The notes beneath the pieces are model-generated. The model was not told the DNA's origin, ran no database searches, and saw nothing but the letters and a program-made list of their open reading frames with translations. A stretch of DNA of 64,000 nucleotides, taken from contig JBJHDA010000002.1 in assembly GCA_050486305.1 (NCBI GenBank), forward strand, positions 10,659 through 74,658, in the 5' to 3' direction. This DNA comes from Candidatus Saccharimonadota bacterium (lineage in GTDB: Bacteria; Patescibacteriota; Saccharimonadia; Saccharimonadales; SLHW01). Shown here in pieces: positions 1 through 17,540 of this stretch (its first letter is position 1; every line of letters starts with the position of its first letter). Made by a program: the position numbers and the translations under genes.

Positions 1-848
1 TCAGTAAAGCCGCCACTACAGTTTGAGGAACTATGGGCGCCGCTAGGCGGATTATCGACGCTTATGCTTGGTATTGCAGCAAAATTTGGTTCTTCTGTTG
101 ATCCGATTCCGCAAACACCGGATTGCACCGGATTTTCAGAGTAAAGCTCCAGCGTGTTTAGTGCGTACCCCATTCTGTCGTCTAGTTCTTCACGGGCAGG
201 ATTGCCGGGCGGCGGAATTTCTGTAGTAGCCACGTATCCTCCATCAATAACCTTCCTTGGTCTTTCAAAGAATGTTAGAAATATCCAGGTAGCCTCTTGC
301 AAGGTCGATGTTTCCCGGAGTTGTTCGTATCCCCATGCCGGCTCAGTCTCTAGTTCATGCATCAGGAAAAGAAGCTGCAACTCAAGACTAAGAGGGTCAA
401 GCCCTAATTCATCAGCATAGTTTAGCCAGTTTTGTTGCCTGCCTGCGGTTGTCCACTGTGCTATACCAAACCCCCTATTGGGTGTTATTTCACTTGCTGA
501 CTCAATTGTTTGGATGCCAGAATCTCCTGGACGCTGTTGAGCCCTATTTGGCATAACAGCACTTTCTTTATATAGATTGCCGACAATGCCGGCAGATTGT
601 TCTGGGGTCAAGCCTTGCTCTCTAAAAAAATTAAATGCAACTTCAACTGCTTCGGAGCCGGAAAATGATGCATCTAGCCCAACCGAACAACTTAGGGCGA
701 CAGAGGAAACCTCTTTGTCAAAGAAATATATACCAGAGTCATATAACCGTTTCTGTTCCCCGGAAATTGCATACACTGACACCTGACCAGTGCCGATAAG
801 CACAACACTAATTAATATTGAAAAAATAAAATTTAGGTGTCGCCTCAT
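1..848 (-). CDS. Secreted peptidoglycan hydrolase, phage-tail-lysozyme-like (putative T4SS cell-wall hydrolase); partial, 3' end beyond window start
   Basis: Not in ORF track because it runs off the window. The minus-strand frame is open from ATG at 848..846 down to nt 3 (checked triplet by triplet; no TTA/CTA/TCA in the plus frame). Its ATG overlaps the TAA of the upstream gene (TAATG). Translation starts MRRHLNFIFSILISVVLIGTGQVSVYA (signal peptide). It continues ...GIVGNLYKESAV...GFGIAQWTTAGRQQNWLNYADELGLDP...QLLFLMHELETEPAWGYEQL...EATWIFLTFFERP, which matches the phage tail lysozyme family pattern (GIAQWT..R...L, QL.F...EL). Confidence 0.6.
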   Translation of the reverse strand, partial: MRRHLNFIFSILISVVLIGTGQVSVYAISGEQKRLYDSGIYFFDKEVSSVALSCSVGLDASFSGSEAVEVAFNFFREQGLTPEQSAGIVGNLYKESAVMPNRAQQRPGDSGIQTIESASEITPNRGFGIAQWTTAGRQQNWLNYADELGLDPLSLELQLLFLMHELETEPAWGYEQLRETSTLQEATWIFLTFFERPRKVIDGGYVATTEIPPPGNPAREELDDRMGYALNTLELYSENPVQSGVCGIGSTEEPNFAAIPSISVDNPPSGAHSSSNCSGGFT

Positions 849-3250
849 TAATTTAATCCTACGTCACCACAACTATCATTTCCTTCATAACAATCAATAG
901 ACGAGACTATCGAGTCATCATAGACAAATAACATTATCCTGATCCATGCCTCGTCATTCAGGTCACTGCAGTTTGCTTCAACATATTCATCTTCAAGGTG
1001 AACCACCTCGCTTACTGGGGTTGCTTGAAGAACCCCATTTACTCTTCTGATTTCTGCGCCGAAGCAGTCTCGTATCTTATCCTTATATCTATCTATATCT
1101 CCACTATCGTACAGTCTTTCTACCTCTAGTGCATTCCTGTATGGGTCCTCGTATCTTGGATCTTCCACGATTGATAAAGGAACACCAATCAAAGGAAAGC
1201 CCCAGTCATAATCAATAGGTTCAGCAGAAGCGGTAGGCATAAGGTTTGAAATAACAGTATAGGGAGCTTTTAGTAGGCCAGCCATAATACTTGCAACATT
1301 AGCACCCATACTTCTGGTATTTGTGGATTGTGCCACTCTGGCAATTAACGATCTTGGTTCGCTTACGTCAAAGATTCTATCTACGAGGCTCTTACTTCTA
1401 AAATTATTAAGCTCTTGCTCATCAAGCCTTGCCATCAGGTGTGCTTCTTCGCTAGTACTTAACTCCACGCCCCCCATAGAAGACAGTGTTGTGTTATGGG
1501 ATCCTCTAGCACCATATGCCATACAAGCACCAAACTTATTTGCATCTTCGACCCGGAGACCACCCTCCTCACCTTCGTCTACAAAGCCGCAAGCATCTGT
1601 TGCTCTTGCTGCTACCTCATCCTGAAGGAAGCTAGACGCCCAGCTCATAATCATTGAATGAACAGCAATCGACCCACCAACCTGAGCGCCTTTTGCGATA
1701 ACCCCGCCAGGCACCAAGAGTGAAAGTGCTCCACCTGCAAGTATCTGAAACCCATACCCTGCTGTACTACAGGCTACAGAAGAAAAACTATCACCCGCTC
1801 TTGCGAGTGCTTGTAGTTCAGGAATATCATCAAATAGCGTATCGGAAAGGATTTCTAAACTACTCCCCCTCATTTGAAACGCTTGCTTGAGTCCAGGGTC
1901 TGCTTCGGCACCCTGACCCTGACCACCATTCGTTAGCGCATCTAGGCTTTTACTTCCCCAGATGCTCCTTCCCGCATCATCACCAAATGATTCTTGTACT
2001 GCACCGATTTGATCCATAGTAAAGTTGCTACCAGATCTTAATTGTGACGAAACAGCCTTTTTGTCTAGGGCTTCTTCCATTGCTGGTTGCACAATAAGGC
2101 TATAGTTAAGTAGCGGAATAATATCCGCTATTTCACCCAAAAAACAAAGTTCACCAGTAAATGTAAGAGCGGCGTTTATGGAGGCCATTCTACCTCCGCC
2201 GATCTTGTCCCTCAAAGAATCCCTTGCGTTTACATACCGTGCACTCAGTTGTGCTACTCTGCCGGTTCGGGTTTTTCGATTACGCTCTAAAATACGTTGT
2301 GCCCTGACATCATATCTTTCTTGAGCAGACGCAGCTGACCGCTGTAGAGGATGAAATAATGACGGCGCATTCCAGAATTTTCCTATTACCCGATAACGTA
2401 ACGAGAGTATCATGGGGGTACTAACCATATTATTTGAGGCCGTGTCCAGTCGGACTAAGCCGGCAATAATGTTTCCTCTTAATTGGGTCTGACCTACTCC
2501 TTCAATGTTTATGAATGCCCCGGCGCCGGGTCCTGTTCCGCTTAAGCCACGTATCGAGTTTTCTGGTATACCAAGGTGTCTGGCGATATTTGCTCTTGTT
2601 TCATCTGGAGTTGCGCCGCGCAAGGCCGAGCCCTCTGGCGGATCAATAAATATACGGGTTGGCCGTCCAGAAGAATCTCTTCTGTCAAAATTAATACCAT
2701 GCTGAGACGCAAGTCTATCGTTTATGCCATGAAAGACTCTACTACCAACAATACCAACTCTCGTCTCCCCTATATCGCCCGTAGAATATGCTCTCGCCAT
2801 CCTAGTAAAGCCATGATTTATTCTACTCTCGGCTACTAGACCACTAGATCTATTGAACCGATTAAGTGCAAAATCAAGCTGCAAAAACTCCAATGGTCCT
2901 GATATTAGGGTTAGCAAGCCGATAATCGCACCAATCGTGATACCACCGGAAGTGCCAGCAACAATCAGCCGCTTGCGCTTTTTTTTAGATTTTCCTTCTC
3001 TTGCAGTACTATCTGAGCCTGTTTTCCAAAATCCAGCATTATCACCTGCTTGCTGTTCTTTTGATTCTAGTCTCGTACTGTCGAGCGGCTCGTTTTTTGA
3101 TTCAGCTGTGTGACTCTTTTCCGAGTTATTGTGATTTTCAGGGTTGCTTACCTTGTCTTTGTTGCCTAAAGAAGCTCCCCTAGGTCTGTCAGCCGAGCGC
3201 TCATCATCATAAACGCCAGTTTCTTTTTCTTTTAGGTCTTGTATTGACAT
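848..3250 (-). CDS. Hypothetical membrane-anchored protein (800 aa), T4SS-operon member; basic N-terminal cytoplasmic segment, single TM, large extracytoplasmic region
   Basis: ORF track. TM helix LIVAGTSGGITIGAIIGLLTLISG follows a KKKRKR stretch. No Walker motifs, so not VirD4. Stop overlaps the start of the downstream hydrolase; start lies 14 nt after the virB4 stop. Confidence 0.4.
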   Translation of the reverse strand: MSIQDLKEKETGVYDDERSADRPRGASLGNKDKVSNPENHNNSEKSHTAESKNEPLDSTRLESKEQQAGDNAGFWKTGSDSTAREGKSKKKRKRLIVAGTSGGITIGAIIGLLTLISGPLEFLQLDFALNRFNRSSGLVAESRINHGFTRMARAYSTGDIGETRVGIVGSRVFHGINDRLASQHGINFDRRDSSGRPTRIFIDPPEGSALRGATPDETRANIARHLGIPENSIRGLSGTGPGAGAFINIEGVGQTQLRGNIIAGLVRLDTASNNMVSTPMILSLRYRVIGKFWNAPSLFHPLQRSAASAQERYDVRAQRILERNRKTRTGRVAQLSARYVNARDSLRDKIGGGRMASINAALTFTGELCFLGEIADIIPLLNYSLIVQPAMEEALDKKAVSSQLRSGSNFTMDQIGAVQESFGDDAGRSIWGSKSLDALTNGGQGQGAEADPGLKQAFQMRGSSLEILSDTLFDDIPELQALARAGDSFSSVACSTAGYGFQILAGGALSLLVPGGVIAKGAQVGGSIAVHSMIMSWASSFLQDEVAARATDACGFVDEGEEGGLRVEDANKFGACMAYGARGSHNTTLSSMGGVELSTSEEAHLMARLDEQELNNFRSKSLVDRIFDVSEPRSLIARVAQSTNTRSMGANVASIMAGLLKAPYTVISNLMPTASAEPIDYDWGFPLIGVPLSIVEDPRYEDPYRNALEVERLYDSGDIDRYKDKIRDCFGAEIRRVNGVLQATPVSEVVHLEDEYVEANCSDLNDEAWIRIMLFVYDDSIVSSIDCYEGNDSCGDVGLN

Positions 3251-3263
3251 AATTTACTCACGA

Positions 3264-5186
3264 TTATACACCTGGTGACAGCCGATTATTTAAGTCAACG
3301 GTACCCTGTGTTCCCTGCATTTCGCCAGTTTGTTCTATTTGTCTTATTTGCTCAGGGTTTGTCGTGATAAGTCCGGTTTCTGTTGGGCTAGCTACAATCT
3401 GAATGTGCACGTGATTTGAGCCAGCGAAAAAGAGGCCCTGCCCAACCGGGAACTGACTGAGGCGCTTTTTCTCTTCACTGGTGAGCTTGAATACATCAGA
3501 TAACACATCGACAGCAGATGCCGATTGCTTAAGCAGAACCTGCATGGACGCATTTGCAACGATTGCTCTTCCCATACGAGACCCCATAAAATCTTCCACA
3601 TCCTGAGTAATAGTGGTGATGCCAAGGTTATATTTTCGGGCGCGCTTGGCAAGGCTAAAGAGGAAGTTTGCAGAATCTTCATATTTCATGAGTTGCCACG
3701 CCTCATCAACTACGAGCATGCGCCTCTTTTTATCAACCTTGGTTTTGTTCCATATAAAGTTTAGGACGATATACATGGCAACTGGCCGCAACTCATCCTC
3801 AAGATCGCGAATATTAAACACAACCATCGGATTATTTATGTTTACGTTGGATTGCTGGGAGAAAATGCCAGCAAAAGTACCAGTGGTGTATTTGCGAAGC
3901 CGTTGGGCAAGCTGAGGACCGAATCCCCCCATGTGTAATAGGGTGTCGTATAGGTCATTGATTGTCGGCGGGGTGGATTTATGGGTAAGCGGATCGTTTG
4001 TGATGCCTGCCTTGGAATATGTCTCAATAAGAGCTGCATCAAGGTCAGCTTCTTCTGCTGGTGTGAGCGCTGGCACGGTCGTGTTGCTTCCGCCACTCAT
4101 CTGAGCTTGTGCGCCGCCCATCATAAGCCGAAGCAGCCCGTGCAGGGTAATAAGGTTACTGCGTAGTGCGTCATCAGCCTCTTCGGTGTCGACCACCTCA
4201 GGTAAATCAAAAGGATTAATGCGCGTTGCTGAATTCAAGCTCAGGTGTACGTAGGCGCCACCGACTGCTTCTGCCATACGTTGATATTCATTTTCTGGGT
4301 CTATGATAAATACCTCAGTGCCTAGCATCATGCTGCGCAGCGCTTCAAGCTTCACAGTGAATGATTTACCAGCACCAGACTTGGCAAATACAACAGAGTT
4401 ACCGTTTTCGAGTGAGAAGCGGTCAAATATAACCAAGCCAGAGTTATGCATATTTATCCCATATAAAATGCCGTTTTCTTGCGTGAGGTCTGCAGACGTG
4501 AATGGAAAGCTTGTAGATAGTGCGCCAGTACTAAAGTTTCGCCGAATTTGCAGCTTGTCAGTAAATTGAGGTACGGTGCTATTTAGGCCTTGTTCTTGTT
4601 GTGAGGTTGCCGGCTTGGAGTAGACGAGCTGCTGGCCGAGCATAGACTCTACCTTGTGTGACACATATTCGAGCTCATCAAGCGATGAGCCATAAATCGT
4701 GAAGTAAAGGCCAAAGCGGAAAAAGCGTTCTTCTCCGACCTGCAGTTTGTCTCGCATTTCTTCTGCGTCAAGAATGGCCGCCTGCTTGCCCGGATCCCTT
4801 ACTCGGCCCTTTTCTGCTTCTATTTGGATGCCCGCCTCGAGCTGGCCGACTTTTTTACGAAGGCTCTCTAGCACTACCTGGCTTTCAACCGGGTAGATGA
4901 ACATAGACATATCCATAACCTCATCAAGGTTTATCATGCTGCTGAGCCAGCCCGTGTATATTTGCCTCGGATAGCCGTATATGTAATACGTTCTCGCATA
5001 CCGTGTGCCAATTTGGAAGTGGGTAGCGCCGAACTCTATGGAGCTTGGCGCGATGAAATCGCGTAAGGCTGTGACGCCTTTTTGAAAAGCTGCGTTGACT
5101 TCTGCTTCTTCCTTCAGTCTCTGCTGTTGAGCGAGCGCTACTGGATCTGCCTGCTGGGCTGGTTGCTTCTTTTTCCGTAAACCCAT
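3264..5186 (-). CDS. virB4: VirB4/TrbE/PrgJ-family T4SS ATPase, C-terminal (ATPase) portion of a split gene
   Basis: Walker A is GAGKS in VFAKSGAGKSFTVK. Walker B is LVVDEAWQL. Other conserved VirB4 blocks are YIYGYPRQIYTGWLS and NLGITTITQDVEDF. Start ATG overlaps the stop of the upstream ORF (TAATG). Confidence 0.85.
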   Translation of the reverse strand: MGLRKKKQPAQQADPVALAQQQRLKEEAEVNAAFQKGVTALRDFIAPSSIEFGATHFQIGTRYARTYYIYGYPRQIYTGWLSSMINLDEVMDMSMFIYPVESQVVLESLRKKVGQLEAGIQIEAEKGRVRDPGKQAAILDAEEMRDKLQVGEERFFRFGLYFTIYGSSLDELEYVSHKVESMLGQQLVYSKPATSQQEQGLNSTVPQFTDKLQIRRNFSTGALSTSFPFTSADLTQENGILYGINMHNSGLVIFDRFSLENGNSVVFAKSGAGKSFTVKLEALRSMMLGTEVFIIDPENEYQRMAEAVGGAYVHLSLNSATRINPFDLPEVVDTEEADDALRSNLITLHGLLRLMMGGAQAQMSGGSNTTVPALTPAEEADLDAALIETYSKAGITNDPLTHKSTPPTINDLYDTLLHMGGFGPQLAQRLRKYTTGTFAGIFSQQSNVNINNPMVVFNIRDLEDELRPVAMYIVLNFIWNKTKVDKKRRMLVVDEAWQLMKYEDSANFLFSLAKRARKYNLGITTITQDVEDFMGSRMGRAIVANASMQVLLKQSASAVDVLSDVFKLTSEEKKRLSQFPVGQGLFFAGSNHVHIQIVASPTETGLITTNPEQIRQIEQTGEMQGTQGTVDLNNRLSPGV

Positions 5187-6142
5187 TACTGCAGCTCCTT
5201 ATTAAGGTTTGGTTGGTTCGCTGTTCCTTGGCCTTTTGTAACGACTGGCGCTGTAAGATCATGAAAGTTCTTTAATTGCTGCCTGGTTGCTGTATCAGGA
5301 TTATAGGTGTCGTAGTAGAGCTCAATCAGCTCCTGTGTGTCTAGTGGCAATCCGGCGACACCACAGTCTTGTAGTCCACCAAGTACGGCCTGAACACGGT
5401 TTCTGAGCTCGTCTTTTGCAGCGTTCAGGTCTGACTCGTTTACTACTACGTGCTGTTCTTTTTCTCCAGCAATACTGCTTTTTATTCCCTCAAAGAAGCC
5501 CTTGCTTGATTCGACCGCACCTCTAACGCTAGCTTTTGAATAGTAAGGTATGACAACGTAAAACTTTTTATCCATAATATTGGTCTGCATAACAAGGTTC
5601 TCAATAAAGCCCAGGTAGTCGTCCATTAGCAGTGCGAGCAGCATATTGTCGTGCTCGGTCCGTATTTTATCGAGCTTTTCTATGTAGGGTCGCATATCAA
5701 CTTTTTGCGACCGGACAAAAATCTGCACATCAAAATACAGGGAATTCAAGAAGCCTTGGTAGGCAAACTCGACGCCTTCGCGTTCTTGTGGGCTCATAAG
5801 GTCGAAGTTGATGGACTTGAGCATGACGACACTCCGAAATGATCCGTCGTTCATAATAACGATACCATCACGTATCTCGGCAATTTGTAGTGTGTTTTGC
5901 GTGCTATTAGGGTTGGATTTTGTCTGTACTCTTGGCTGCTGCCCAATATTTTGTGGTGGCGCTGCACCAGGTGGAACATAGTTGCCAGTTCCAGCAACAG
6001 CCGGCTGAGCCCCGTAGGAGCCATACGGGCTTGCAGGGGCTTGTTGTTGACCTGCTGGTTGTGTTGATCCTGGTTGTGCTTGTGGCTGCCCTTGTGGCGT
6101 CTGGTAATTTTGTGTGTTTGGGTTCATGTACGAAACGCCCAC
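5186..6142 (-). CDS. VirB4 N-terminal domain protein (split virB4, first cistron) with Gln/Pro-rich low-complexity N-terminal extension
   Basis: After ~100 aa of Q/P-rich sequence comes IRDGIVIMNDGSFRSVVMLKSINFDLMSPQEREGVEFAYQGFLNSL. This is typical of the N-terminal region of PrgJ/TrsE-type VirB4 proteins (ikdGii..dGs..kvl.i.piNf). The TAA stop overlaps the ATG of the ATPase cistron. Confidence 0.55.
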   Translation of the reverse strand: MGVSYMNPNTQNYQTPQGQPQAQPGSTQPAGQQQAPASPYGSYGAQPAVAGTGNYVPPGAAPPQNIGQQPRVQTKSNPNSTQNTLQIAEIRDGIVIMNDGSFRSVVMLKSINFDLMSPQEREGVEFAYQGFLNSLYFDVQIFVRSQKVDMRPYIEKLDKIRTEHDNMLLALLMDDYLGFIENLVMQTNIMDKKFYVVIPYYSKASVRGAVESSKGFFEGIKSSIAGEKEQHVVVNESDLNAAKDELRNRVQAVLGGLQDCGVAGLPLDTQELIELYYDTYNPDTATRQQLKNFHDLTAPVVTKGQGTANQPNLNKELQ

Positions 6143-6167
6143 CTTTTGCTAACTACTATAAAAAAAA

Positions 6168-7382
6168 TTAATGAAGCGATACTATCACCTCGTCAGTCGA
6201 TGAACCGTCACCCGTTTTTTTGTTTGCTTGACGAGCAATCGTCTCAACGCTGAGATCATCGTTGTGTGCAAAGTTTAGTATATCAGCATTAGCGGATTGA
6301 TTTCCAGCTGTTTTATCTGTTGGAGCGTCTTTTTTGCTTTGTGTCTCTATGTTGTTTTGCGAGCTTTGCTCTGCCGTTTGTTCAGATAAGGGTTTAATTG
6401 TCTTAAGGTGGCTGTTCATCGGGTTAGGTTTTTTTTGGTTTTCATGAATTTTATCCAGTGCCGCTTGTTCTTCTGGAGTTAATTTGCTGTCAGATTTGGC
6501 CGGAGTGGGGCGTGCTGCTTGCCCTGGCGTCACAATAGGCGCTGCTTCAAATGTAGCGGTCCCGGGTGTCGTTGGGGCATGTGGCTGTCTCATGAACCAA
6601 TAGTCATTTTTTTGCTGCTGAGCTGGTTCGTCCGGTGTTGCTGTGGTAGCTTGTGATTGCTGAAGCTGCGAGACGATCTGCTGCTTGTGTTGCTGGGAAG
6701 ACTGCTCGATCATTTTCTCAAAATGTTGAGCGGTTGGGTTGTTCTGTTCATCATAAATATCATCATCAGGCTTTATGTCATATTCTGCTACCTGTTGAGG
6801 AGTAGAGGTGGGGTCTATCAGTCTATCTGACTGCCTGCTTGGGGTGAAGCTTTGGGAATTTAGGTTTACATTTACGTTTTTTACTGCCCAGCCACGGCTG
6901 TCAATCGTGTCAGCGAGTGCTCGAAGCCGACTTTTAACCTCGGTGTTGCTTAGTCCATCAGTATAGATTTTTTCTTCATGCTTTGGGACGGTTACCGTAA
7001 CAAGCTCTTTTATGCCGTCCTGGTCCCATATACGTCGCCTCGGGCGGAAGTAAAATCGGAGCTTTGCCATCATCCAAACTTCAGTCGGCTGATCTTTACT
7101 CCAGGGGAACGCCAATAAGCCAAAAAATAGCGTAGGAGGTAAGAAAACAACAAGGAGAAAAACTAACCCATTAATGACTGACCAGAATGAAAGATATCCT
7201 GTCACCATGGTAATGCAGGCAAAAATGAACTGCTTAAGTGTGAGGGGTCCGAAAAGCTTGTCTTCCGCCTCGATATCTTGAATTACTTTATACTGGCCCA
7301 TGATTAACCCAAGTATAAAATAGAAAGCAGAAAGTATAAAGCTTACGCTGCCCGATGTGTTCGTTTGGTAAAGCAAATTCAC
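6168..7382 (-). CDS. PrgI/VirB3-like T4SS membrane protein with ~270-aa Gln/Thr-rich disordered C-terminal tail
   Basis: N-terminal 2-3 TM helices carry the pattern FGPLTLKQFIF...KDQPTEVWMMAKLRFYFRPRRRIW, resembling the PrgI family (VirB3 analogue). It sits directly upstream of virB4, as in prgI-prgJ. Confidence 0.5.
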   Translation of the reverse strand: MNLLYQTNTSGSVSFILSAFYFILGLIMGQYKVIQDIEAEDKLFGPLTLKQFIFACITMVTGYLSFWSVINGLVFLLVVFLPPTLFFGLLAFPWSKDQPTEVWMMAKLRFYFRPRRRIWDQDGIKELVTVTVPKHEEKIYTDGLSNTEVKSRLRALADTIDSRGWAVKNVNVNLNSQSFTPSRQSDRLIDPTSTPQQVAEYDIKPDDDIYDEQNNPTAQHFEKMIEQSSQQHKQQIVSQLQQSQATTATPDEPAQQQKNDYWFMRQPHAPTTPGTATFEAAPIVTPGQAARPTPAKSDSKLTPEEQAALDKIHENQKKPNPMNSHLKTIKPLSEQTAEQSSQNNIETQSKKDAPTDKTAGNQSANADILNFAHNDDLSVETIARQANKKTGDGSSTDEVIVSLH

Positions 7383-7499
7383 AGAATACTGACAATGGAC
7401 CCCCTAATAAGGTAATAATTCTATGATCTTGCGGCAGCTCTAAGAACAGCAACTGAGCGATGTAGCTAAAACCTGAACCAAAGGTTTAAGGTGAGGCGC

Positions 7500-8657: not shown

Positions 8658-8697
8658 ATTCCTAGCTCCATGCAGAACGCTATTTTTGTATGTAAAT

Positions 8698-10443
8698 TCA
8701 TAAGCTGCCACCTGTACTAGCAATTATCGAAGCCATTATTTTACCAACGGCAGTGGTGACCATTATTATCGGGAAAAACCACATCATAAGCCAAAAGGTC
8801 TTGTTCCATAGGTTCCATATACTGGTTCTTCCCGGGAATATCCAGGCCAGTATAGCCAATGGTGAAACCAACACAAGCAGCACGATAAGCGTGTGACGGA
8901 ACATAAGCAGTGCAAGAACAGCCAGGAGGGCTAGGGCAGCAACGCCAGCGAATCCTGCCAGCGTCGCGACTAGTCCTCCGCCCATTACTCCTTGTGCGGC
9001 TGCGATAGCTCCCCAGGCAACGAGACCTGATACGACGGCCTGTCCAGCAAAACTCTCTGGTGGACGCAAAACCTGCTCCAGTGTGGTGCCTGGCCCCACG
9101 TCAGGAAACGGGTACAATAATAAGTTGTGTATCCCGTAGCCTATGGCTTGTACAAAATCAACGATAAAAACAGTTATCTCAAACGATAAGGCGATGAATA
9201 TTGTAGCGACTACCATCCTTGGCAGCGCACTCTTGACCGTATAGGCGCTAATGAAGTCAAAGCCGAGGGCTGTACTTATAATCATGACTAACATTATCGG
9301 CACTAATAACAGGTATGCGATATTCCTCAGTATTGTCCACGAAGCGCGAAGCCCTTCGTGATCTTCAAAAAAACCAGGTTCAATTGCCAACAGGCTTGCC
9401 ATTCGTTCGTCTACATATCTCAGTGCGCCAGAGGCCATGGACAGCACTTGGCAAAACAGCCACGCCATGCCGCCAGCGTCCTCGCAGGTGGGGCCTCTGT
9501 CCTCATCCTCAATAGTGCCGCCAGGAGCTTCCGCGTCAGGGTTTAGTTCTTGCCAAGCGCGCACAGCCGTTAATGCTGCATCGGCGTGCCTATTCATCAA
9601 GCTCACAATACTTTCGCAGCTAAGCCTTGACCCAGCACTTCTGTCGTCTGCTGCCCTGGACCCCATACCGTAACCGACATGATGATTGCTGCTATCTACG
9701 ATAAATTTATTAGCAGGATCTGCAACCTCCGACCCGTCATTATTTATGATACGTACTGTTGCTCCGCCAGTCTGGTCCGCTCCATTGTTGCATTTTGCAA
9801 AAAAAGTATCCCGTGCAATAAAGTACTGAGCATATCCCGGCATGGTGGTGTTTGTGAAGCTTATTTCTGACCTTCGTTCCCTAAACATAGCAGCGATTAA
9901 ATCGCGGACACTGCTGTTGTTCCGGGTATTGCTGATGCCATCATTAAGCTTGTATTGTCCTGACCCTGGTTCAGTGGGGACGTACATTGCTGGCCACGAA
10001 TTACCTGTTCTGCCGCCAACAGTTTGTGGTTGGGTGAAGAAGTCTAGGATTCCGTCCCCATCACCACCGGGGCTGACCCCCGCGTATGTGAGAAGTGCCG
10101 CAGCACTACTATTACAATTGAGCGATCCGTTACCGCTACTAGACAAATGATTAGTACGATAAGAGCGACCGTCAAAGAAAATTTTTCCTTCTCGCAGCTC
10201 TGCAGTTGTCGGGTAGCTCCCAGCCGATTCACCTTTGACTGCTACTGTGCCCGCTCCCCCGTTTGTACACCAATACAAACCCCAATAGGCTTGATACGCC
10301 CTTACCATGCTAGTAGGGTGGTCGCTTCCTACGTTCTGTGGGCTGGGCCACGCATTGGCGGTGGTTGGAAGGAGGATCGAAACGGCTAATTGAAATAGTA
10401 ATAAGCCAAAAGCCGAGGCTATCCATAACCGCTTTATTTTCAT
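8698..10443 (-). CDS. VirB6/TrbL-like T4SS channel protein: signal peptide, large extracytoplasmic domain, C-terminal multi-pass TM bundle
   Basis: Signal peptide is MKIKRLWIASAFGLLLFQLAVSILLPTTANA. The C-terminal ~230 aa contain at least 5 hydrophobic helices (ILRNIAYLLLVPIMLVMIISTALG...AIAAAQGVMGGGLVATLAGFAGVAALALLAVLALLMF). Position relative to PrgI/VirB4 matches prgH-prgI-prgJ. Confidence 0.5.
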   Translation of the reverse strand: MKIKRLWIASAFGLLLFQLAVSILLPTTANAWPSPQNVGSDHPTSMVRAYQAYWGLYWCTNGGAGTVAVKGESAGSYPTTAELREGKIFFDGRSYRTNHLSSSGNGSLNCNSSAAALLTYAGVSPGGDGDGILDFFTQPQTVGGRTGNSWPAMYVPTEPGSGQYKLNDGISNTRNNSSVRDLIAAMFRERRSEISFTNTTMPGYAQYFIARDTFFAKCNNGADQTGGATVRIINNDGSEVADPANKFIVDSSNHHVGYGMGSRAADDRSAGSRLSCESIVSLMNRHADAALTAVRAWQELNPDAEAPGGTIEDEDRGPTCEDAGGMAWLFCQVLSMASGALRYVDERMASLLAIEPGFFEDHEGLRASWTILRNIAYLLLVPIMLVMIISTALGFDFISAYTVKSALPRMVVATIFIALSFEITVFIVDFVQAIGYGIHNLLLYPFPDVGPGTTLEQVLRPPESFAGQAVVSGLVAWGAIAAAQGVMGGGLVATLAGFAGVAALALLAVLALLMFRHTLIVLLVLVSPLAILAWIFPGRTSIWNLWNKTFWLMMWFFPIIMVTTAVGKIMASIIASTGGSL

Positions 10444-10567
10444 GAGTAATACTATAGCACCATCTTATTGTGAGTGTAATAGATTGACCCCATAAACTTT
10501 ATAAAGCTTACGTTTCTGCACTGCTCTATTTATCTTATCGCCTGCGTGCACCAAAAAGCATAGTCGT

Positions 10568-11089
10568 CTAAAAGGTTTCGTCGAAAATCAAGTCGTCTAA
10601 CTGGTTTGTAAAGTGTATATTGTCAGGTAATTGGTGCATATCCTGTGAGGTTCCTTGCCTGCAGGTTCCTTCCAACTCTTCAAAAAGTTGCCTAAGCTCG
10701 CCTTCTTCTGCTATGTCATCGTATAGAAAGCTACGTAAAGTTCCATCCAGGCTGTGTACTGTTCCGGTGTCTGAATCTTCCTCCCAATAATAGACATCGC
10801 CGTCAATTACCATGGTGTGGGTTGTCCAAGTATCAGATGATTCCGTGGTGTCGGTATAGTTTTCAATCATTCTGAGCGCGCCAGAGTCAAAGTAATAAAC
10901 CGTACTGTCCAGAGGTGTTTCATTATTATTCGCTTGAGTTAGTGTGCAGGTTGCTGCAGTTTCTCCATTAAGAGCTCGGCTAAATACGCTGTAGTCGTCC
11001 GTTGTGCTCCTTGATATAAATGAGGTTAACGCAACGACCGCAACAATAAGAAGTATTCCGGCTAGAATCACTACTAGTCTTTTTTTCAT
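10568..11089 (-). CDS. Hypothetical N-terminally anchored/exported protein
   Basis: ORF track. Begins MKKRLVVILAGILLIVAVVAL; the remainder is Thr/Asp-rich. Confidence 0.4.
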   Translation of the reverse strand: MKKRLVVILAGILLIVAVVALTSFISRSTTDDYSVFSRALNGETAATCTLTQANNNETPLDSTVYYFDSGALRMIENYTDTTESSDTWTTHTMVIDGDVYYWEEDSDTGTVHSLDGTLRSFLYDDIAEEGELRQLFEELEGTCRQGTSQDMHQLPDNIHFTNQLDDLIFDETF

Positions 11090-11236
11090 CTTATTGTCCC
11101 TAAACGGGCTAACATTAGCATTATGTACACTATGTTCACATAAAACCGCTCAGTTAACAAGAAGCTTATTGGTTAAATTCGGACGAGTTTTATACCAGAA
11201 GGTCTTACTAAAAGGTCTACAATGGGCATGATGAAA

Positions 11237-12604
11237 CTACAGGCTTTCGGTGCCGAGGTTCTGCTCATCACCTCTTTTTATCCAGATTTCTTGATCTGGA
11301 GCAAAGCTAGACATGTTTTCTGCTGAGGTGGTTGTTTTTTCAAACTCTAGTACATGTATGAACGCGGTATCATTGTCTGGGTGATTAATGGGCGACCAGT
11401 CAAGATTCATCTTAACCTGTATGCTCATATGGTTTTCGTCGGATTGCCAAGCGTCTACAATTTCCCAACCGTGCTTTATGAAGTAAGGCTCTTCGCCTCT
11501 TTCAGCGCGCCCTTCTCGATGCCCTCTCGTGTACTCGGTGTTTGTTTGTATTAACCGTCTGGCATTTTCGATAGTACGTTCAGCGCCTGGCGTGTTCCCA
11601 AACATAGCCTCAAGACATGTGCTTTCTATGTGAAAGTTATGCGAGTTTAATATGCATGACCTGTTTTGCAAATACTGATAGAGTAGTTCTTCTGGGTTGT
11701 CAGCCGTCATCAGTACGGGCTCATTCTCTTGGTTGATTACCTCTGGGCTGCGAAGCGAAGGGTATTGCGACTCACTTATGGGACCTGAGTGATCTTCAGG
11801 GCTATCGGCTTCTGTGTCATCGATGACTATGTCATCTGTTTCTTCTGTAGAAGATGGCCTATCCTCTTTGTCTAATGGAGGCTGGTCAGTGCGATCAAGC
11901 ATATCTTGCTCTCTATCTGCCAAATTTTGATCAACTTCTTCTTCAGGAGGAGTCGCTTCGGCATCTGAGGGTTCTGATGCGCTTCCTCCGAACGCAATTG
12001 CCGCTGCTGCTGCGACTCCCGCCACACCGGCTGCTAGTCCGCCATACCCGAGCAACTTCTTCCGTTTTTTGACGCTGGTGCTTTCTGTCGGCACTGCTTC
12101 ATCGTTTGGCTGCGCTTCAAGAGTTGTGCTCGGAGCTGTTGCTGCAAGCTGCTGATCTTGACCCTGTTGGTCTTGCGTTTGTTCTTGCGTTTGTTCTTGC
12201 GTTGCATGTTCCCCGGTAGTCGAATCAGAGGCATTCTCCCTTTGACCCACTGAAGAACTAGCGTCTTCGGGGGTATTTTCCGGTAATGGCGGGGGTGTAT
12301 TCGCAAATTCCTCTTCGTCTGCAGCGCCCAGCACGTCGCCAGGACTACTTGGAGCAAGCCTGACAGATTCTTCGGCCCACTGCTTCCATGGGTCGCTGAA
12401 CTCATCGCCTGAGGGTGAAGTGTTTGGCGTATTTTCAGGTATTTGTTCGTCTGTTGGATTTTGCGGTTGCGCCTCAACGACAGTGTCTCCAGGCGCTGGG
12501 AGTTGTTCGGATGTTTCTGGGCCATACACTTCTGTTGGCTTTTCCGTTGGGTTAGCCTCTTGACCCTCTTGTACTGGTGACAAATTTTCTTCAGGAGTAC
12601 TCAT
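11237..12604 (-). CDS. Hypothetical acidic Pro/Glu/Gln-rich protein with central TM helix
   Basis: ORF track lists 11237..12661. The Met at 12604 (MSTPEENLSP) has an AAGGA Shine-Dalgarno 9 nt upstream and is the likelier start. TM helix is LLGYGGLAAGVAGVAAAAAIAFGG. An internal 12-bp tandem repeat encodes QEQTQEQTQDQ. Confidence 0.45.
   Translation of the reverse strand: MSTPEENLSPVQEGQEANPTEKPTEVYGPETSEQLPAPGDTVVEAQPQNPTDEQIPENTPNTSPSGDEFSDPWKQWAEESVRLAPSSPGDVLGAADEEEFANTPPPLPENTPEDASSSVGQRENASDSTTGEHATQEQTQEQTQDQQGQDQQLAATAPSTTLEAQPNDEAVPTESTSVKKRKKLLGYGGLAAGVAGVAAAAAIAFGGSASEPSDAEATPPEEEVDQNLADREQDMLDRTDQPPLDKEDRPSSTEETDDIVIDDTEADSPEDHSGPISESQYPSLRSPEVINQENEPVLMTADNPEELLYQYLQNRSCILNSHNFHIESTCLEAMFGNTPGAERTIENARRLIQTNTEYTRGHREGRAERGEEPYFIKHGWEIVDAWQSDENHMSIQVKMNLDWSPINHPDNDTAFIHVLEFEKTTTSAENMSSFAPDQEIWIKRGDEQNLGTESL
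12171..12206. repeat. 12-bp tandem repeat (tcttgcgtttgt x ~3) inside the 11237..12604 CDS
   Basis: Seen directly. Encodes QEQT repeats on the minus strand. Confidence 0.7.
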
Positions 12605-12719
12605 AGATAATATTTTCCTTGCTATGTAAATACTATAACATATAAAAAAAGAAATGTCCATATAGTTTACTTTTTTGCAAGATTAAATTAATGTTAAGAT
12701 TGATATAAGAAATATAAAA

Positions 12720-13325
12720 ATGAAAGCACTGAAACTCCTTAAGCACCCTACACTAGTAATATTATGTCTTCTTCTGCTGCTCACTGTTGTGGTTATTGCT
12801 TCATCTCTACCAGCTGGTGTATCTGCTCAATCCGGAAGGAGCAGCGACAGAGAAATAGCTGCGGCTGTCTGCCAAGATAATCCTGATGCGCAAGTCTCTC
12901 CCGTTACGTGGGAAGAGTGTATAGAAAGGACCGTACGAAGCCTGAATAGACAGTGTGATTTTAGTCCGCATTCTGAGGCTTGGGCGAGCTGTAGGCAGCA
13001 GTTTTTGGACTCTAATGTCGCTTCATCAGGGTCTGGGATTTCAACCACCCAGCTGAACGCTGATTGTTCAGAGCAACCGTTAACTCCTGACAACTGCGGC
13101 ATAATCGGCTACATTAGAATAATAACGGACGGTCTGACGGTTATTGTGGGTATAGTGGTTGTGATGATGCTCATTGTCGGAGGCATACAATATTCATCTG
13201 CAGGCAGCAACCCTCAGGCGGTAACAGCGGCTAAAAAGAGAATTTCTCAGGCGTTGTTTGCTCTTGTGATATACATATTCTTATTTGCATTCTTGCAATG
13301 GATTGTGCCAGGAGGGGTGTTTTAA
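12720..13325 (+). CDS. VirB2/TrbC-like T4SS pilin paralogue 1 (long Cys-containing variable ectodomain)
   Basis: N-terminal signal/TM. C-terminal block LTVIVGIVVVMMLIVGGIQYSSAGSNPQAVTAAKKRISQALFALVIYIF matches the family motif h-IMII-GG-x-Y-x-SGGD-x-AK-x-TILYA-IGLV shared by all seven genes. Confidence 0.5.
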   Translation: MKALKLLKHPTLVILCLLLLLTVVVIASSLPAGVSAQSGRSSDREIAAAVCQDNPDAQVSPVTWEECIERTVRSLNRQCDFSPHSEAWASCRQQFLDSNVASSGSGISTTQLNADCSEQPLTPDNCGIIGYIRIITDGLTVIVGIVVVMMLIVGGIQYSSAGSNPQAVTAAKKRISQALFALVIYIFLFAFLQWIVPGGVF

Positions 13326-13328
13326 GCA

Positions 13329-13769
13329 ATGATTCAAAGGCTCTTTATATTCAGCATCATCAGCACTTCCTTTATTGTTGCGGCAGTATTCTTTATGCCG
13401 CAGCAACAAGTATCAGCTTGCGACGACCGTGGGACATTCCTGTCTTTTCCCAGATGGTACGAATATCTGGAGGTTGACAGCGAATGCAATGTGAGTGCTA
13501 TTCGGTATGATGGTGGTTCAGGAGAGATTAATCTGGGAGCAACTGTCGGCGCTATACTTCTTGCTGTGACGGAGATACTCTTAAGAGTGTCCGGGATAGT
13601 CGCCGTAGGCTTTATTGTTTATGGAGGCGTTCAGTTCACGATGAGCCAAGGAGCTCCTGACAGGCTGCAGGCATCTAAACAGATTATTATGAATGGCATC
13701 ATCGGTTTGGTTATTGCAGTTTTGGCTGTGGCTATCGTTAACCTAGTGAGCAATATAGTGGTAGGGTGA
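13329..13769 (+). CDS. VirB2/TrbC-like T4SS pilin paralogue 2
   Basis: C-terminal block IVAVGFIVYGGVQFTMSQGAPDRLQASKQIIMNGIIGLVIAVLAV. It starts 4 nt after the previous gene. Confidence 0.5.
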   Translation: MIQRLFIFSIISTSFIVAAVFFMPQQQVSACDDRGTFLSFPRWYEYLEVDSECNVSAIRYDGGSGEINLGATVGAILLAVTEILLRVSGIVAVGFIVYGGVQFTMSQGAPDRLQASKQIIMNGIIGLVIAVLAVAIVNLVSNIVVG

Positions 13770-13773
13770 GATT

Positions 13774-14061
13774 ATGGAACTTCGAAAATTATTCGCTAAC
13801 ATAGAAGGAACGTTCGATGGTGTTAATATCCCAGAGGCTGGTACTGACGGCTCCATTGAGGCTGCGGTTGGCTTTTTCTTTATCCTAGCCGGGATTATAG
13901 CGGTTATCATGATAATTCTTGGCGGCTACTGGTATGTATTGTCTGGCGGTGATCCGCAAAAGACCAAAAAAGCCAAAGACACGATTCTGTATGCCGTAAT
14001 TGGACTAGTCATATCTATCAGTGCCTGGATAATCGTAGGGTTTGTCTTAGCGAGCACGTAA
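13774..14061 (+). CDS. VirB2/TrbC-like T4SS pilin paralogue 3 (no cleavable signal peptide)
   Basis: C-terminal block IIAVIMIILGGYWYVLSGGDPQKTKKAKDTILYAVIGLVISI. Confidence 0.55.
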   Translation: MELRKLFANIEGTFDGVNIPEAGTDGSIEAAVGFFFILAGIIAVIMIILGGYWYVLSGGDPQKTKKAKDTILYAVIGLVISISAWIIVGFVLAST

Positions 14062-14450
14062 TGATGAAAAAACTCCTATTAACATTCACTGCCCTGCTTG
14101 CGCCAGTTTTATTTTTTGCTACGGCGGCAGCGAATGTAAATCCACTGGAAGACGTCTGTCGTGAAGCTCCGAATTCAGCAGTCTGCATTGAAGAGCGAGC
14201 TACCCGAGGGCAAGACAGTACGGATAACCGTGTTGTTAGTTTTCTAGGAGAAGTGGTGAGAATCATGCTGTTTGCACTTGGGGCCATAGCGGTAGTTGCG
14301 GTGATGGTAGGCGCGCTGATGTATGTATTGTCCGGTGGCGACCCAGCAAAAACACAAAAAGCAAAGACTACTATTTTGTATGCACTCATCGGCGTAGTGA
14401 TAGCCACCGTTGCTCAATTGATAATACTGTTCGTTTTAGATAGACTATAG
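14061..14450 (+). CDS. VirB2/TrbC-like T4SS pilin paralogue 4
   Basis: Signal peptide, then AIAVVAVMVGALMYVLSGGDPAKTQKAKTTILYALIGVVIATVAQLI. Start overlaps the previous stop. Confidence 0.55.
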   Translation: MMKKLLLTFTALLAPVLFFATAAANVNPLEDVCREAPNSAVCIEERATRGQDSTDNRVVSFLGEVVRIMLFALGAIAVVAVMVGALMYVLSGGDPAKTQKAKTTILYALIGVVIATVAQLIILFVLDRL

Positions 14451-14487
14451 ATAAAATAATAAGAATCACAGGAGCAAAACACACAAA

Positions 14488-14898
14488 ATGGAAAACATAA
14501 TCAAGCAAACCATACACAGTAAGCCGATCCAGCTTATTCTGCTCGGGGCTATTGTTGCCGCGTTGCTGGTAGTACTCATGCCTGAGGTAGGCTTTACGCA
14601 AGCGAGTGAAGTTCGCCAAGGCATAGGCGCGACTGGTGTAGATACGACCGAGGGTGAGGCTAGATCGGGCATTAACTCGCTGATTCAGACGACCATAAAC
14701 ATCATTTCTTGGATTGTAGGTATCATATCGGTCATCATGATCATCATCGGCGGACTTAAGTACATAATGTCTACCGGAGATTCGCAAAAAGTAGATTCGG
14801 CAAAGAATACCATTCTCTACGCCGTTATTGGTCTTGTTATTGTGGCGTTTGCACAGATAATCGTATTGTTTGTTCTCGACACAACCACAGGTAACTAA
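14488..14898 (+). CDS. VirB2/TrbC-like T4SS pilin paralogue 5
   Basis: C-terminal block IISVIMIIIGGLKYIMSTGDSQKVDSAKNTILYAVIGLVIVAFAQII. Confidence 0.55.
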   Translation: MENIIKQTIHSKPIQLILLGAIVAALLVVLMPEVGFTQASEVRQGIGATGVDTTEGEARSGINSLIQTTINIISWIVGIISVIMIIIGGLKYIMSTGDSQKVDSAKNTILYAVIGLVIVAFAQIIVLFVLDTTTGN

Positions 14899-14978
14899 CG
14901 ATGATAGTTCGTCTACAACTTCAGTCATAGCGCTAGGTCTAGTTGACGCAGAAAAGCCATAAGTGTATAACTTAAGCA

Positions 14979-15398
14979 ATGAAAGGAACGAATAAAATGA
15001 AAAAGAATCTAACAACACTACTCGTAAGCGCCTTGTTTGTGCTCGGCCTGGCAGCGCCACTAGCGCTTGTGTCAGCTACACCCGCCTCTGCACAGAGTGG
15101 AATCGCAGAGAACTTAGATGCGGGGGCACAACGTACGGATCCTGATGCTGACCCGGATGCTGAGGAGCGAGTGAATCAGATTATCGTGACAGTGATAAAT
15201 ATTTTTTCACTTGTTGTGGGTGTGATATCCGTCATCATGATTATCATCGGTGGCTTGAAGTACATCACCTCTGGCGGTGACTCAGGCAACGTAACGAGCG
15301 CTAAGAACACTATTCTTTACGCAATCATCGGTCTTGTTGTGGTGGCGCTAGCTCAGATAATCGTACGGTTTGTCATAGAGCGCGTTACAAACGCATAG
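14979..15398 (+). CDS. VirB2/TrbC-like T4SS pilin paralogue 6
   Basis: Signal peptide (possible start at the internal Met at 14997, MKKNLTT). C-terminal block VISVIMIIIGGLKYITSGGDSGNVTSAKNTILYAIIGLVVVALAQII. The 3' 130 bp are identical to paralogue 7. Confidence 0.55.
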   Translation: MKGTNKMKKNLTTLLVSALFVLGLAAPLALVSATPASAQSGIAENLDAGAQRTDPDADPDAEERVNQIIVTVINIFSLVVGVISVIMIIIGGLKYITSGGDSGNVTSAKNTILYAIIGLVVVALAQIIVRFVIERVTNA

Positions 15399-15427
15399 CC
15401 TCGAAAAGCTAACAGCACAAAAAAATT

Positions 15428-15458
15428 GCCACCGCGGAAACGCGGTGGCTTTCTTTTT
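15428..15458 (+). terminator. Rho-independent terminator after pilin paralogue 6
   Basis: gccaccgcg-gaaa-cgcggtggc is a perfect 9-bp stem. It is followed by tttcttttt. Confidence 0.7.
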
Positions 15459-15473
15459 GTCAGGCTTTGTTAC

Positions 15474-15502
15474 TTGCATAAGTTACATATAAGTGGTATA
15501 AT
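15474..15502 (+). promoter_or_regulatory. Sigma-70-type promoter for pilin paralogue 7
   Basis: TTGCAT (15474-15479), 17-nt spacer, TATAAT (15497-15502). GAGGA ribosome-binding site lies ~12 nt before the ATG at 15543. Confidence 0.55.
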
Positions 15503-15542
15503 GTATAATGCGCATAATTGCGTGTGAGGAGCTATAAGCTGC

Positions 15543-15935
15543 ATGAAAAACACACTACTTTTTATCACGGCTGTTGCTGGACTATTGCTGACGCTTCTAG
15601 CAGTACCTGGTGATACAGTTGCTGCACAGAGCAATATAACAGAGGGCCTCACTCGAGGAGCTGAATTGACAGATCCGGATGCCGAAACTGTAAGTCCTGA
15701 GGATCAAGTAAACGCAATTATTTCTACAATCATTAATCTGTTTTCGCTTGTGGTCGGAGTTGTATCCGTCATCATGATTATCATCGGTGGCTTGAAGTAC
15801 ATCACCTCTGGCGGTGACTCAGGCAACGTAACGAGCGCTAAGAACACTATTCTTTACGCAATCATCGGTCTTGTTGTGGTGGCGCTAGCTCAAGTGATTG
15901 TTCGATTCGTACTTGCCCGTATTACGGGTGCTTAG
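15543..15935 (+). CDS. VirB2/TrbC-like T4SS pilin paralogue 7
   Basis: Signal peptide. C-terminal block VVSVIMIIIGGLKYITSGGDSGNVTSAKNTILYAIIGLVVVALAQVI. Confidence 0.55.
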   Translation: MKNTLLFITAVAGLLLTLLAVPGDTVAAQSNITEGLTRGAELTDPDAETVSPEDQVNAIISTIINLFSLVVGVVSVIMIIIGGLKYITSGGDSGNVTSAKNTILYAIIGLVVVALAQVIVRFVLARITGA

Positions 15936-15963
15936 TAGTAGTCGTTCCTGTATAAATATAAAT

Positions 15964-16002
15964 ACACCCTCTGCAGCGATGCATAAGAGGGTGTATTTTG
16001 TT
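15964..16002. terminator. Hairpin terminator between convergent pilin-7 and hsp20 genes
   Basis: acaccctct-N13-agagggtgt is a 9-bp stem. It is followed by attttgtt on plus and by an AT-rich run on minus. Confidence 0.5.
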
Positions 16003-16015
16003 GCTAGAGGTTTGC

Positions 16016-16495: not shown

Positions 16496-16624
16496 ACGTA
16501 TTACCCTCCGATTGTAAAAAATTTATTTGTCGCTTTTGCAATTTTTGTTAGTGGTTAGTATAGCCTATCCTATAAGATATGAGCAACAGTTTGCTAACAT
16601 ATTTACAACAGTACTAATAACAAC

Positions 16625-17302: not shown

Positions 17303-17540
17303 TGCGCCCGCTCGAGCCGACTTTACTTTCTAGCCCGACATATCGGTATCGGGCTTTTGCCCTACTTCGCTAATGCTTCAGAGGGCATCCTTCATAGGCA
17401 ACGAAGTTAGCAACGATGAATGGCGGAAGGGGTGGGATGATTTCATGCTTTGACAGCATGTTCTCGGAGTAAACTCCTGCGAGCAAGCTGTCACGCCCGA
17501 ACCGCATTGGGTTCGACTCCGCGCTTTCTGGCAAGAAAGC

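Follow-up and report, generated by a model that had tools for sequence, protein, structure and literature searches.

The window analysed here is a stretch of 64,000 nt, and its first 16 kb possess a locus for a type IV secretion system (T4SS), with a machinery operon on the minus strand and an array of pilin genes on the plus strand. The gene layout was taken from the open reading frame (ORF) listing and its translation, and both agreed with the coordinates and strands which an earlier note on this DNA had assigned to the minus-strand operon and the plus-strand pilins. In the direction of transcription the operon encodes a VirB6-like protein, PrgI, a TrsD-like protein, VirB4, a large envelope protein and a lysozyme, which is the PrgH-I-J-K-like order recognised in that note. 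Inspection of the sequence confirmed that stop and start codons are fused as TAATG at 848 and at 5186. Profile searches with hidden Markov models (HMMs) supported the assignments of VirB4, PrgI, the lysozyme and the pilins, while the VirB6-like assignment found no HMM support and stands on structure only. The system used for comparison is the 'apparent T4SS (SEML1_0006-0019)' of Southlakia epibionticum, which is essential by transposon sequencing (Tn-seq; Wang et al. 2023, Cell, PMC10633639).

The VirB4 ATPase is a protein of 640 aa of the CD1110/MPF_FATA type (3264-5186, minus strand). It matched Pfam P-loop_TraG (E=6e-28) and the solved VirB4 domain of PDB 4AG5 (E=1e-46), with TrwK following at 1e-5, and it scored 356 bits with NCBIfam NF045971 ('VirB4-like conjugal transfer ATPase, CD1110 family'), for which 325 bits are required. 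The first ~175 profile positions are missing from this protein, which covers positions 176-732 of NF045971. The adjoining TrsD-like gene (5186-6142, minus strand) encodes 318 aa from a GTG start or 313 aa from the ATG at 6127, and its product matched positions 2-118 of the same profile (E=1.3e-5), along with NF041427 TrsD (E=2.5e-5) and positions 19-179 of TIGR00929 (E=0.003). A Gln/Pro-rich tail precedes the VirB4-derived segment in the TrsD-like protein. The two proteins match complementary parts of one profile, so the 'split' VirB4 of the earlier note is literally right, and by these profile matches the 318-aa TrsD-like protein is judged to be the detached N-terminal segment of VirB4. Comparison of the TrsD-like family with the N-terminal 250 aa of the adjacent VirB4 by hhalign gave no signal (probability 0.6%; effective sequence number, Neff, 1.6) and was uninformative. 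A precomputed PF26593 'TraC-like' label on the 313-aa protein was not returned by the local Pfam-A scan.

The PrgI/VirB3-like membrane protein (404 aa; 6168-7382, minus strand) carries predicted transmembrane segments. Its PF12666 domain (E=1e-10; score 42 bits, cut-off 27) occupies residues 32-118, with a long tail of low complexity behind it. Next to it lie the genes of a 407-aa protein (7500-8723, minus strand) and of the VirB6-like channel subunit of 581 aa (8698-10443, minus strand), whose ORFs overlap by 26 nt at the junction 8698-8723. The 581-aa protein starts with a signal peptide, followed by an extracellular domain of low conservation and by a five-helix membrane domain (residues ~320-577). 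The 407-aa protein represents the last transmembrane helix and the hydrophilic C-terminal domain of an extended VirB6-like protein. In most relatives one gene of 850-1100 aa encodes the whole protein, and the 581-aa and 407-aa proteins align collinearly with its adjacent parts. The earlier note had counted the 407-aa product as a separate 'membrane protein'; the gene is real, but its product corresponds to the C-terminal part of what is elsewhere a single VirB6-like protein. An assembly error was considered as the cause of the split and was rejected. The closest relative, the independently assembled locus L082, shows the identical arrangement of two genes (589 and 415 aa, at 3008-6027), and the pair is therefore a genuine lineage-specific fission of one extended VirB6 gene.

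The window protein of 581 aa gave no Pfam or NCBIfam match and no PDB profile match, and the TrbL profile scored in one of its 15 orthologues (E=0.7). Its structure was predicted from an alignment of 38 sequences, and the membrane domain was modelled with confidence (predicted local distance difference test, pLDDT, 75-97). The model shows a polytopic helical fold and the gene is positioned between VirB3 and the pilins, both as expected of VirB6, so that the VirB6-like identity is supported by the predicted structure and not by HMM. Precomputed PF19590 labels on relatives of this protein were left unused, since the local Pfam copy did not return them and the accession is absent from the literature searched. 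Exact look-up of the 581-aa protein gave no record, and for VirB4 and the 800-aa protein described below the only match was a Logan contig of 8.6 kb.

The large envelope protein of 800 aa (848-3250, minus strand) holds the PrgK/TraG position of Gram-positive systems. Its N-terminus is disordered, a transmembrane segment lies near residues 95-113, and a large, mostly helical domain follows. The core of the protein (~760 aa) has no match among solved folds and no Pfam, NCBIfam or PDB sequence match. In an exhaustive profile search the core was found to represent a large family with 872 clusters at E<=1e-30; this search was required, as word-indexed searches, even with a profile, gave six relatives. 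The view of the earlier note that the 800-aa, 407-aa, 474-aa and 173-aa proteins have no recognisable family thus holds for the 173-aa and 474-aa proteins, while the 800-aa protein belongs to an 872-cluster family which lacks a Pfam model. Relatives of the 800-aa protein end in an extra M23 or VanY peptidase domain, and the window protein has neither.

The window begins within the gene of a secreted peptidoglycan hydrolase of the lysozyme type (1-848, minus strand), with 282 of its 414 aa inside the window and the rest beyond the edge. The protein carries a signal peptide and a phage-tail-lysozyme domain (PF18013, E=4e-24). The full gene of 414 aa is seen on a Logan contig (L001), which encodes PrgI, VirB4, 800-aa and lysozyme proteins without any difference from those of the window. 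The C-terminus of the lysozyme protein on this contig possesses the LAS-type DD-metallopeptidase motif HGLGRAIDI...HTDHLHVE. A precomputed PF26571 'VldE' label on the lysozyme protein was not returned by the local Pfam-A scan, and such mismatches between precomputed and local labels probably reflect different library versions. Among relatives, lysozyme, glucosaminidase, M23, VanY and LAS peptidase domains are reshuffled over the two genes downstream of virB4. In the relative L002, for instance, a glucosaminidase and M23 protein is found in place of the hydrolase of the window type (window 1-3250; L001 6367-7611; L002 11920-16037).

Two further minus-strand genes separate the VirB6-like gene from the pilins. 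The first encodes a membrane-anchored or secreted protein of 173 aa (10568-11089), which holds the position of SEML1_0012, an NTF2/VirB8-like protein in S. epibionticum. The second (11237-12661) encodes a protein of 474 aa, without family or PDB match, in which one transmembrane segment lies between an acidic disordered N-terminus and a C-terminal globular domain of ~170 aa. Neither the 173-aa protein nor the C-terminal domain of the 474-aa protein gave a Pfam or NCBIfam match or a significant PDB sequence match. Homologues of both were detected only in L082, with 32% identity for the 173-aa and 43% for the 474-aa protein. A 12-nt tandem repeat in the 474-aa gene (12167-12203; 3.1 copies, 96% matches) encodes a TQEQTQEQTQDQ stretch of the acidic disordered N-terminal region.

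The seven plus-strand genes all scored above the gathering threshold of Pfam T4SS_pilin (PF18895). Pilin 1 (12720-13325; 201 aa) has a long Cys-rich N-terminal extension and the lowest margin (27.3 bits against a cut-off of 26.6), along with an NF045849 match at E=9e-6 and positional orthology. Pilin 2 (13329-13769; 146 aa) scored 32.4 bits and matched NF045849, and its second position is kept in relatives. Pilin 3 (13774-14061), the shortest with 95 aa, scored 54.6 bits, pilin 4 (14061-14450; 129 aa) 31.9 bits, pilin 5 (14488-14898; 136 aa) 50 bits, pilin 6 (14979-15398; 139 aa) 50.9 bits and pilin 7 (15543-15935; 130 aa) 57.3 bits. They share a signal peptide and two hydrophobic helices flanking a conserved GG-x-x-Y-x-x-S-G-G-D...AK loop. 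All of them also match NF045849, the 'Mbov_0395 family pilin-like conjugal transfer protein' of Mycoplasma integrative conjugative elements (ICEs), with pilin 3 scoring above the cut-off (42.3 bits; cut-off 40). Matches to the classical TrbC family PF04956 were all sub-threshold, the best being that of pilin 5 (27.5 against 27.9 bits).

Pairwise identity among the pilins ranges from 24 to 69%. The highest value belongs to pilins 6 and 7, which share 84% nucleotide identity over the 3' 229 nt and have variable N-terminal halves, and pilin 7 is evidently a recent, lineage-specific duplicate of pilin 6. Between them (15428-15509, plus strand) lie a GC-rich, terminator-like hairpin and its T-run (15428-15449), and further on a promoter-like site (15482-15509). 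Both are consensus matches only, and given these elements pilin 7 may be its own transcription unit. The array in relatives contains 5-9 genes, six in most. Nearly every recovered array (L002-L081, about 1300-4500 in locus coordinates) is headed by a pilin-1-like gene followed by a pilin-2-like gene. The third position is held in most relatives by a short pilin-3-like gene and the distal positions by closely related genes of the pilin-4-to-7 type. This pattern suggests that the array comprises ancient, non-redundant paralogue classes rather than interchangeable variants. Non-redundant structural roles are favoured over antigenic variation because of the fixed positions in the array together with the essentiality of all six S. 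epibionticum pilins.

The machinery operon and the pilin array diverge from an AT-rich control region (12605-12719). The spacer of 58 bp between the annotated ORFs (12662-12719) has a GC content of 15.5%, compared with 47.8% for the window. A promoter-like site for the minus strand, TGGACA-17-TATAGT with an extended -10 TG (12660-12632), fits the sigma-70-like consensus in 10 of 12 positions. As the initial 19 codons of the 474-aa ORF enclose this site, translation probably starts at the ATG at 12604 (MSTPEEN...), giving a protein of 455 aa. The divergent spacer would then be about 115 bp long, with a GC content of 18.3%. Of the earlier description, a pilin array diverging from a 58-bp AT-rich region, the seven PF18895 genes and the AT-richness stand, while the length of the spacer is probably twice as large. 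A scan of positions 1-16600 by Rfam E-value and for repeats found nothing besides the paralogy of the pilins.

Downstream of the array, the flank at 16016-20122 contains genes for Hsp20, a ComF-like phosphoribosyltransferase, tRNA-Ser(tga), tRNA-Ser(gct), tRNA-Arg(gcg) and tRNA-Ser(cga), in the same Hsp20-ComF-tRNA-Ser order as SEML1_0020-0022 of S. epibionticum. Relatives have a conserved order of comF, hsp20, pilin array, VirB6-like, PrgI, TrsD-like, VirB4, large protein and hydrolases. In L002 the hydrolases are followed by a Big_5 protein, recF, dnaN and dnaA; origin proximity is thus read from this relative, as the window itself ends within the lysozyme gene. The contig L001 reaches 1.4 kb past coordinate 1, where it adds no more than the remaining part of the hydrolase gene and one further envelope protein with a membrane anchor. 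The region upstream of coordinate 1, whose inspection the earlier note had asked for, is accordingly read as that of the replication origin and not as a mobility module. Because the Hsp20/ComF synteny is kept across Saccharimonadales and recF-dnaN-dnaA adjoins the cluster in L002, the locus is judged to be chromosomal and vertically inherited. A scan of 185,579 species genomes gave 590 confirmed relatives of the VirB4. The best 80 of these 590, nearly all labelled as Saccharibacteria/Saccharimonadales metagenome-assembled genomes, share 80-90% identity with it, which assigns the organism of the window to Saccharimonadales, while the closest VirB4s of PLSDB plasmids reach 28-39%. The call of vertical inheritance and of a class-specific VirB4 is made from these identity values and not from a phylogenetic tree.

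These data bear on the possibility that the locus is the transfer module of an ICE or a plasmid remnant, with its type IV coupling protein (T4CP), relaxase and integrase situated just outside the window. The VirB4 family is named for conjugative elements (CD1110 of CTn2) and the second-best family match is the ATPase family of Mycoplasma ICEs. The tRNA-Ser genes lie 1.6-4 kb beyond the array, and in related loci of Actinobacteria a T4CP and a relaxation protein are indeed present. However, Pfam scans of ORFs of at least 120 aa found no VirD4/TcpA-type coupling protein, relaxase or integrase in the 64-kb window, extending what the earlier note had reported for 16 kb. The flanks in L001 and L002 also showed no VirD4 and no relaxase or integrase domain; an oriT is beyond what sequence alone can exclude. 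The Hsp20/ComF flanks are identical across dozens of species, S. epibionticum has the same flanks with tRNA-Ser and dnaA-dnaN-recF, and the VirB4 is far closer to those of its order than to that of any plasmid. The GC content of the locus is also uniform with the remaining window. An ICE or plasmid remnant is thus highly improbable. The synteny and the missing mobility genes support the earlier reading, which favoured a secretion or pilus apparatus of the chromosome over a conjugative element and which has already been published for this lineage.

In S. epibionticum the gene order (PMC10633639, supplementary Tables S1/S2) starts with dnaA, dnaN, recF, two small exported proteins and a lysozyme/cysteine-protease protein. 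It continues with a 1113-aa protein ending in a DD-peptidase, VirB4, a 293-aa protein, PrgI and a 998-aa 'T4SS protein', and ends with an NTF2-like protein, a 1088-aa TrbL/VirB6-like protein, six PF18895 pilins, Hsp20, ComF and tRNA-Ser. Nearly all these genes, including all six pilins and Hsp20, scored essential by Tn-seq. The system was described as resembling Gram-positive conjugative systems, from which it is set apart by pilins that are essential and by the lack of recognisable coupling or relaxase proteins (PMC10633639). The window locus shares with S. epibionticum ML1 (SEML1_0004-0021 including flanks) the gene order, the Hsp20, ComF and tRNA-Ser flank, the chromosomal and origin-proximal location (here via L002) and the lack of a relaxase or T4CP in cis. 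It differs in having seven pilins instead of six, owing to the duplication of pilins 6 and 7, and in the split of the VirB6-like gene into 581 and 407 aa. In addition, the ~1088-aa TrbL/VirB6-like SEML1_0013 is replaced here by the unrelated-looking single-pass 474-aa protein, and the large protein has no C-terminal peptidase domain, the DD-peptidase motif being on the lysozyme protein instead.

The wider survey of Quinonero-Coronel et al. 2025 (PMC12102498) reported VirB4 in 2,417 of 3,035 Patescibacteria genomes, most of them forming a monophyletic clade nested in MPF_FATA. TrsD, PrgI, VirB6 and VirB2 arrays of 2-11 genes were found near virB4, the locus often adjoins dnaA, and relaxases are almost always absent (PMC12102498). 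The window locus agrees with conjugative T4SSs of the MPF_FATA type in its VirB4, which passes the CD1110 equivalog cut-off, in the TrsD-like and PrgI proteins, in the order VirB6-VirB3-(TrsD)-VirB4-hydrolase and in the lack of outer-membrane core components. Unlike these, it shows no T4CP or relaxase, possesses an array of VirB2-like pilins and is chromosomally fixed rather than mobile.

Taken together, the locus is read as a vertically inherited chromosomal Saccharibacterial T4SS, orthologous to SEML1_0004-0019, which serves the interface between epibiont and host and not conjugation. A probability of roughly 0.9 is given to this reading. The window locus is one more orthologue of a known system with minor variations, and its recognition was a correct rediscovery of what is already published. 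The T4SS is described as carried by all Saccharibacteria (TM7), which are ultrasmall and live on other bacteria, and as essential for growth on the host. It matters as the only T4SS known to be essential to its carrier and because every member of a large group of ultrasmall epibionts has it. By-products of the analysis are the sequence-level support for the split VirB4, the structural support for the VirB6-like protein, the 800-aa family, the conservation gradient described below and the pilin modules of Gram-positive bacteria.

Several points weigh against this reading. The experimental data on essentiality come from S. epibionticum ML1, and the orthology to its genes was judged from order, size and domains and not from direct alignment. 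Foldseek of the VirB6-like model gave E-values of 0.17-1.7 only, and sequence homology was not significant. For a VirB8-like component (PrgL/TraM, NTF2 fold), the topology of the 173-aa and 474-aa proteins, with one transmembrane segment and a small domain, fits, and neither gave a sequence match. A T4CP or relaxase could be encoded elsewhere in the genome, beyond the 64 kb. That the pilins polymerise would follow from family membership alone, and the role of the system has been called 'completely unknown' (PMC11665869).

From established T4SS biology, VirB4 hexamers would dock on PrgI/VirB3 and VirB6. The docked VirB4 would supply the power to extract pilins from the membrane and to polymerise them, and the resulting pilus or conduit would cross the epibiont wall and reach or penetrate the host envelope, with the muramidase and DD-peptidase opening the peptidoglycan. 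A 2026 preprint on a different patescibacterium describes tubular structures, which are indirect evidence for a pilus. Median identity to the relatives (L002-L081) was 84% for VirB4, 66% for the TrsD-like protein, 43% for PrgI, 36-54% for the pilins, 30% for the membrane half of the VirB6-like protein and 25% for the 800-aa protein. For the 407-, 173- and 474-aa proteins no similarity was detectable outside the nearest relative. Conservation that falls from the cytoplasmic to the exposed parts is consistent with diversifying pressure at a host interface, and this gradient together with the reshuffled hydrolase domains points to a host-facing role.

The exposed parts could also belong to a pilus for adhesion only, in which the VirB4 machine assembles VirB2-type tethering fibres without passage of material. 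The seven pilins and the rapid divergence of exposed parts are in line with such fibres, as is the literature in which conjugative pili act mainly in attachment. Attachment and motility of Saccharibacteria have, however, already been assigned to type IV pili and adhesins (PMC11665869, PMC10633639), and the conserved VirB6-like channel subunit along with the wall hydrolases suggests a trans-envelope conduit. A purely adhesive role is hence considered improbable.

For a conduit, uptake of host material is favoured over effector export or adhesion alone, with about even confidence. The lean towards uptake comes from the absent coupling protein and from S. epibionticum, in which, according to the literature, comEC is dispensable and the T4SS essential, and a distant T4CP homologue is non-essential. 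There is precedent (PMC11665869) in DNA importers without T4CP, namely ComB of Helicobacter pylori and the archaeal Ced system, which like the window locus combine a VirB4-type ATPase with the lack of a coupling protein and relaxase. The VirB4 matched CedB and CedD of NCBIfam at E-values of 1e-14 and 2e-7, far below the cut-offs. Outside the ATPase domain no specific homology to ComB or Ced was seen, and ComB is a diderm system.

The opposite direction would make the locus an effector-export T4SS, by which epibiont proteins are injected or released to subvert the host, as in Brucella VirB or Streptococcus suis 89K, with a substrate recognition that would need no cis-encoded coupling protein. 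Wang et al. suggested that the system 'may instead export proteins' (PMC10633639), exporters without T4CP exist in Ptl and Brucella VirB (PMC12102498), and the anatomy of the components fits either direction of transport. These known exporters are, however, diderm systems. Neither the locus nor its immediate surroundings offered a recognisable candidate effector, chaperone or secretion signal, and the neighbours are housekeeping genes. The lethality of loss, in an organism unable to make its own building blocks, would also fit acquisition somewhat better. Export is therefore regarded as a doubtful but serious possibility.

Related pilin-bearing modules are present outside Patescibacteria, and they are grouped, together with the Mbov_0395/0397 families of Mycoplasma ICEs, among the closest known systems. 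The 898-kb replicon of Pontibacillus sp. ALD_SL1 (L083, NZ_CP062975, 7483-17036) contains two PF18895 genes followed by TrbL/VirB6-like, TraL/PrgI-like, TrsD-like and VirB4 genes. Its TrsD-like gene shows 30% identity (E=2e-28), a 1050-aa NlpC/P60 and M23 hydrolase follows VirB4, and no T4CP or relaxase was found within 12 kb. On a linear plasmid of Embleya sp. NBC_00896 (L084, NZ_CP108778, 7520-18363), an unannotated ORF of 176 aa with the pilin motif overlaps the start of the VirB6-like gene. Next come the genes of PrgI, whose C-terminal part is TrsD-like, of VirB4 and a T4CP, and of a replication-relaxation protein and NlpC/P60. A similar-looking module is present on a linear plasmid of Streptomyces sp. 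BHT-5-2 (L085, NZ_CP081497). As Embleya has both the T4CP and the relaxation gene directly after VirB4, their absence at the window is a real difference between the loci.

The window locus resembles these Firmicute and Actinobacterial modules in the order of pilin(s), VirB6-like, PrgI/TraL-like, TrsD-like, VirB4 (37-39% identity) and hydrolase, with pilins of the PF18895/NF045849 type. In contrast, the modules have one or two pilins rather than 6-7, are borne on plasmids or megaplasmids, and possess hydrolases unrelated to the 800-aa core. The calls of pilin-like genes on plasmids come from Pfam, PGAP annotation and local comparisons, covering few loci and including some sub-threshold matches. 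A tblastn search with pilin 5 against all PLSDB plasmids gave no match at E<=1e-3.

Pilins have been regarded as absent from MPF_FATA (PMC12102498) and, in the literature, from other Gram-positive T4SSs. The modules suggest that a monoderm sub-branch had VirB2-like pilins from its ancestor on, and that Patescibacteria did not acquire them by co-option. A tentative joint picture, held at slightly less than even odds, combines two parts. In the first, the pilin-VirB6-VirB3-TrsD-VirB4-hydrolase module would be ancestral in a monoderm FATA sub-branch and kept in Firmicutes, Actinobacteria and Mycoplasma ICEs, with or without T4CP and relaxase. In the second, the Saccharibacterial array would represent at least three ancient, positionally fixed, non-redundant paralogue classes which form a heteromeric pilus and not a cassette for antigenic variation. 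If this is true, some Gram-positive T4SSs would build VirB2 structures, contrary to current reviews. The pilin-bearing modules of Gram-positive bacteria thus bear on the origin of the pilins and on the making of pili by monoderm T4SSs. The positional structure of the array, the NF045849 matches of all pilins and the pilin-bearing modules in PLSDB are points absent from the literature consulted on these systems.

The remaining 48 kb of the window are composed of housekeeping genes, encoding among others ValRS, TsaD, a Mur ligase, GroEL, PGI, ArgRS, GDH, DnaG, RpoD, PolA, Fpg and HolA. Three other features were observed there. A protein of 279 aa (22476-23315) has an HTH_3 (Cro/C1) domain fused to a HAD hydrolase domain. 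A PGA_cap protein of 397 aa, similar to CapA of poly-gamma-glutamate capsule synthesis, is encoded at 44542-45735. At 37378-39187 (minus strand), adjacent genes encode a CarS-like protein (CDP-archaeol synthase family, PF01864, E=2e-28), a PHP-domain protein and a CDP-alcohol phosphatidyltransferase; the CarS-like protein belongs to an archaeal-type family of lipid activation and is found here in a bacterium with very limited lipid synthesis.

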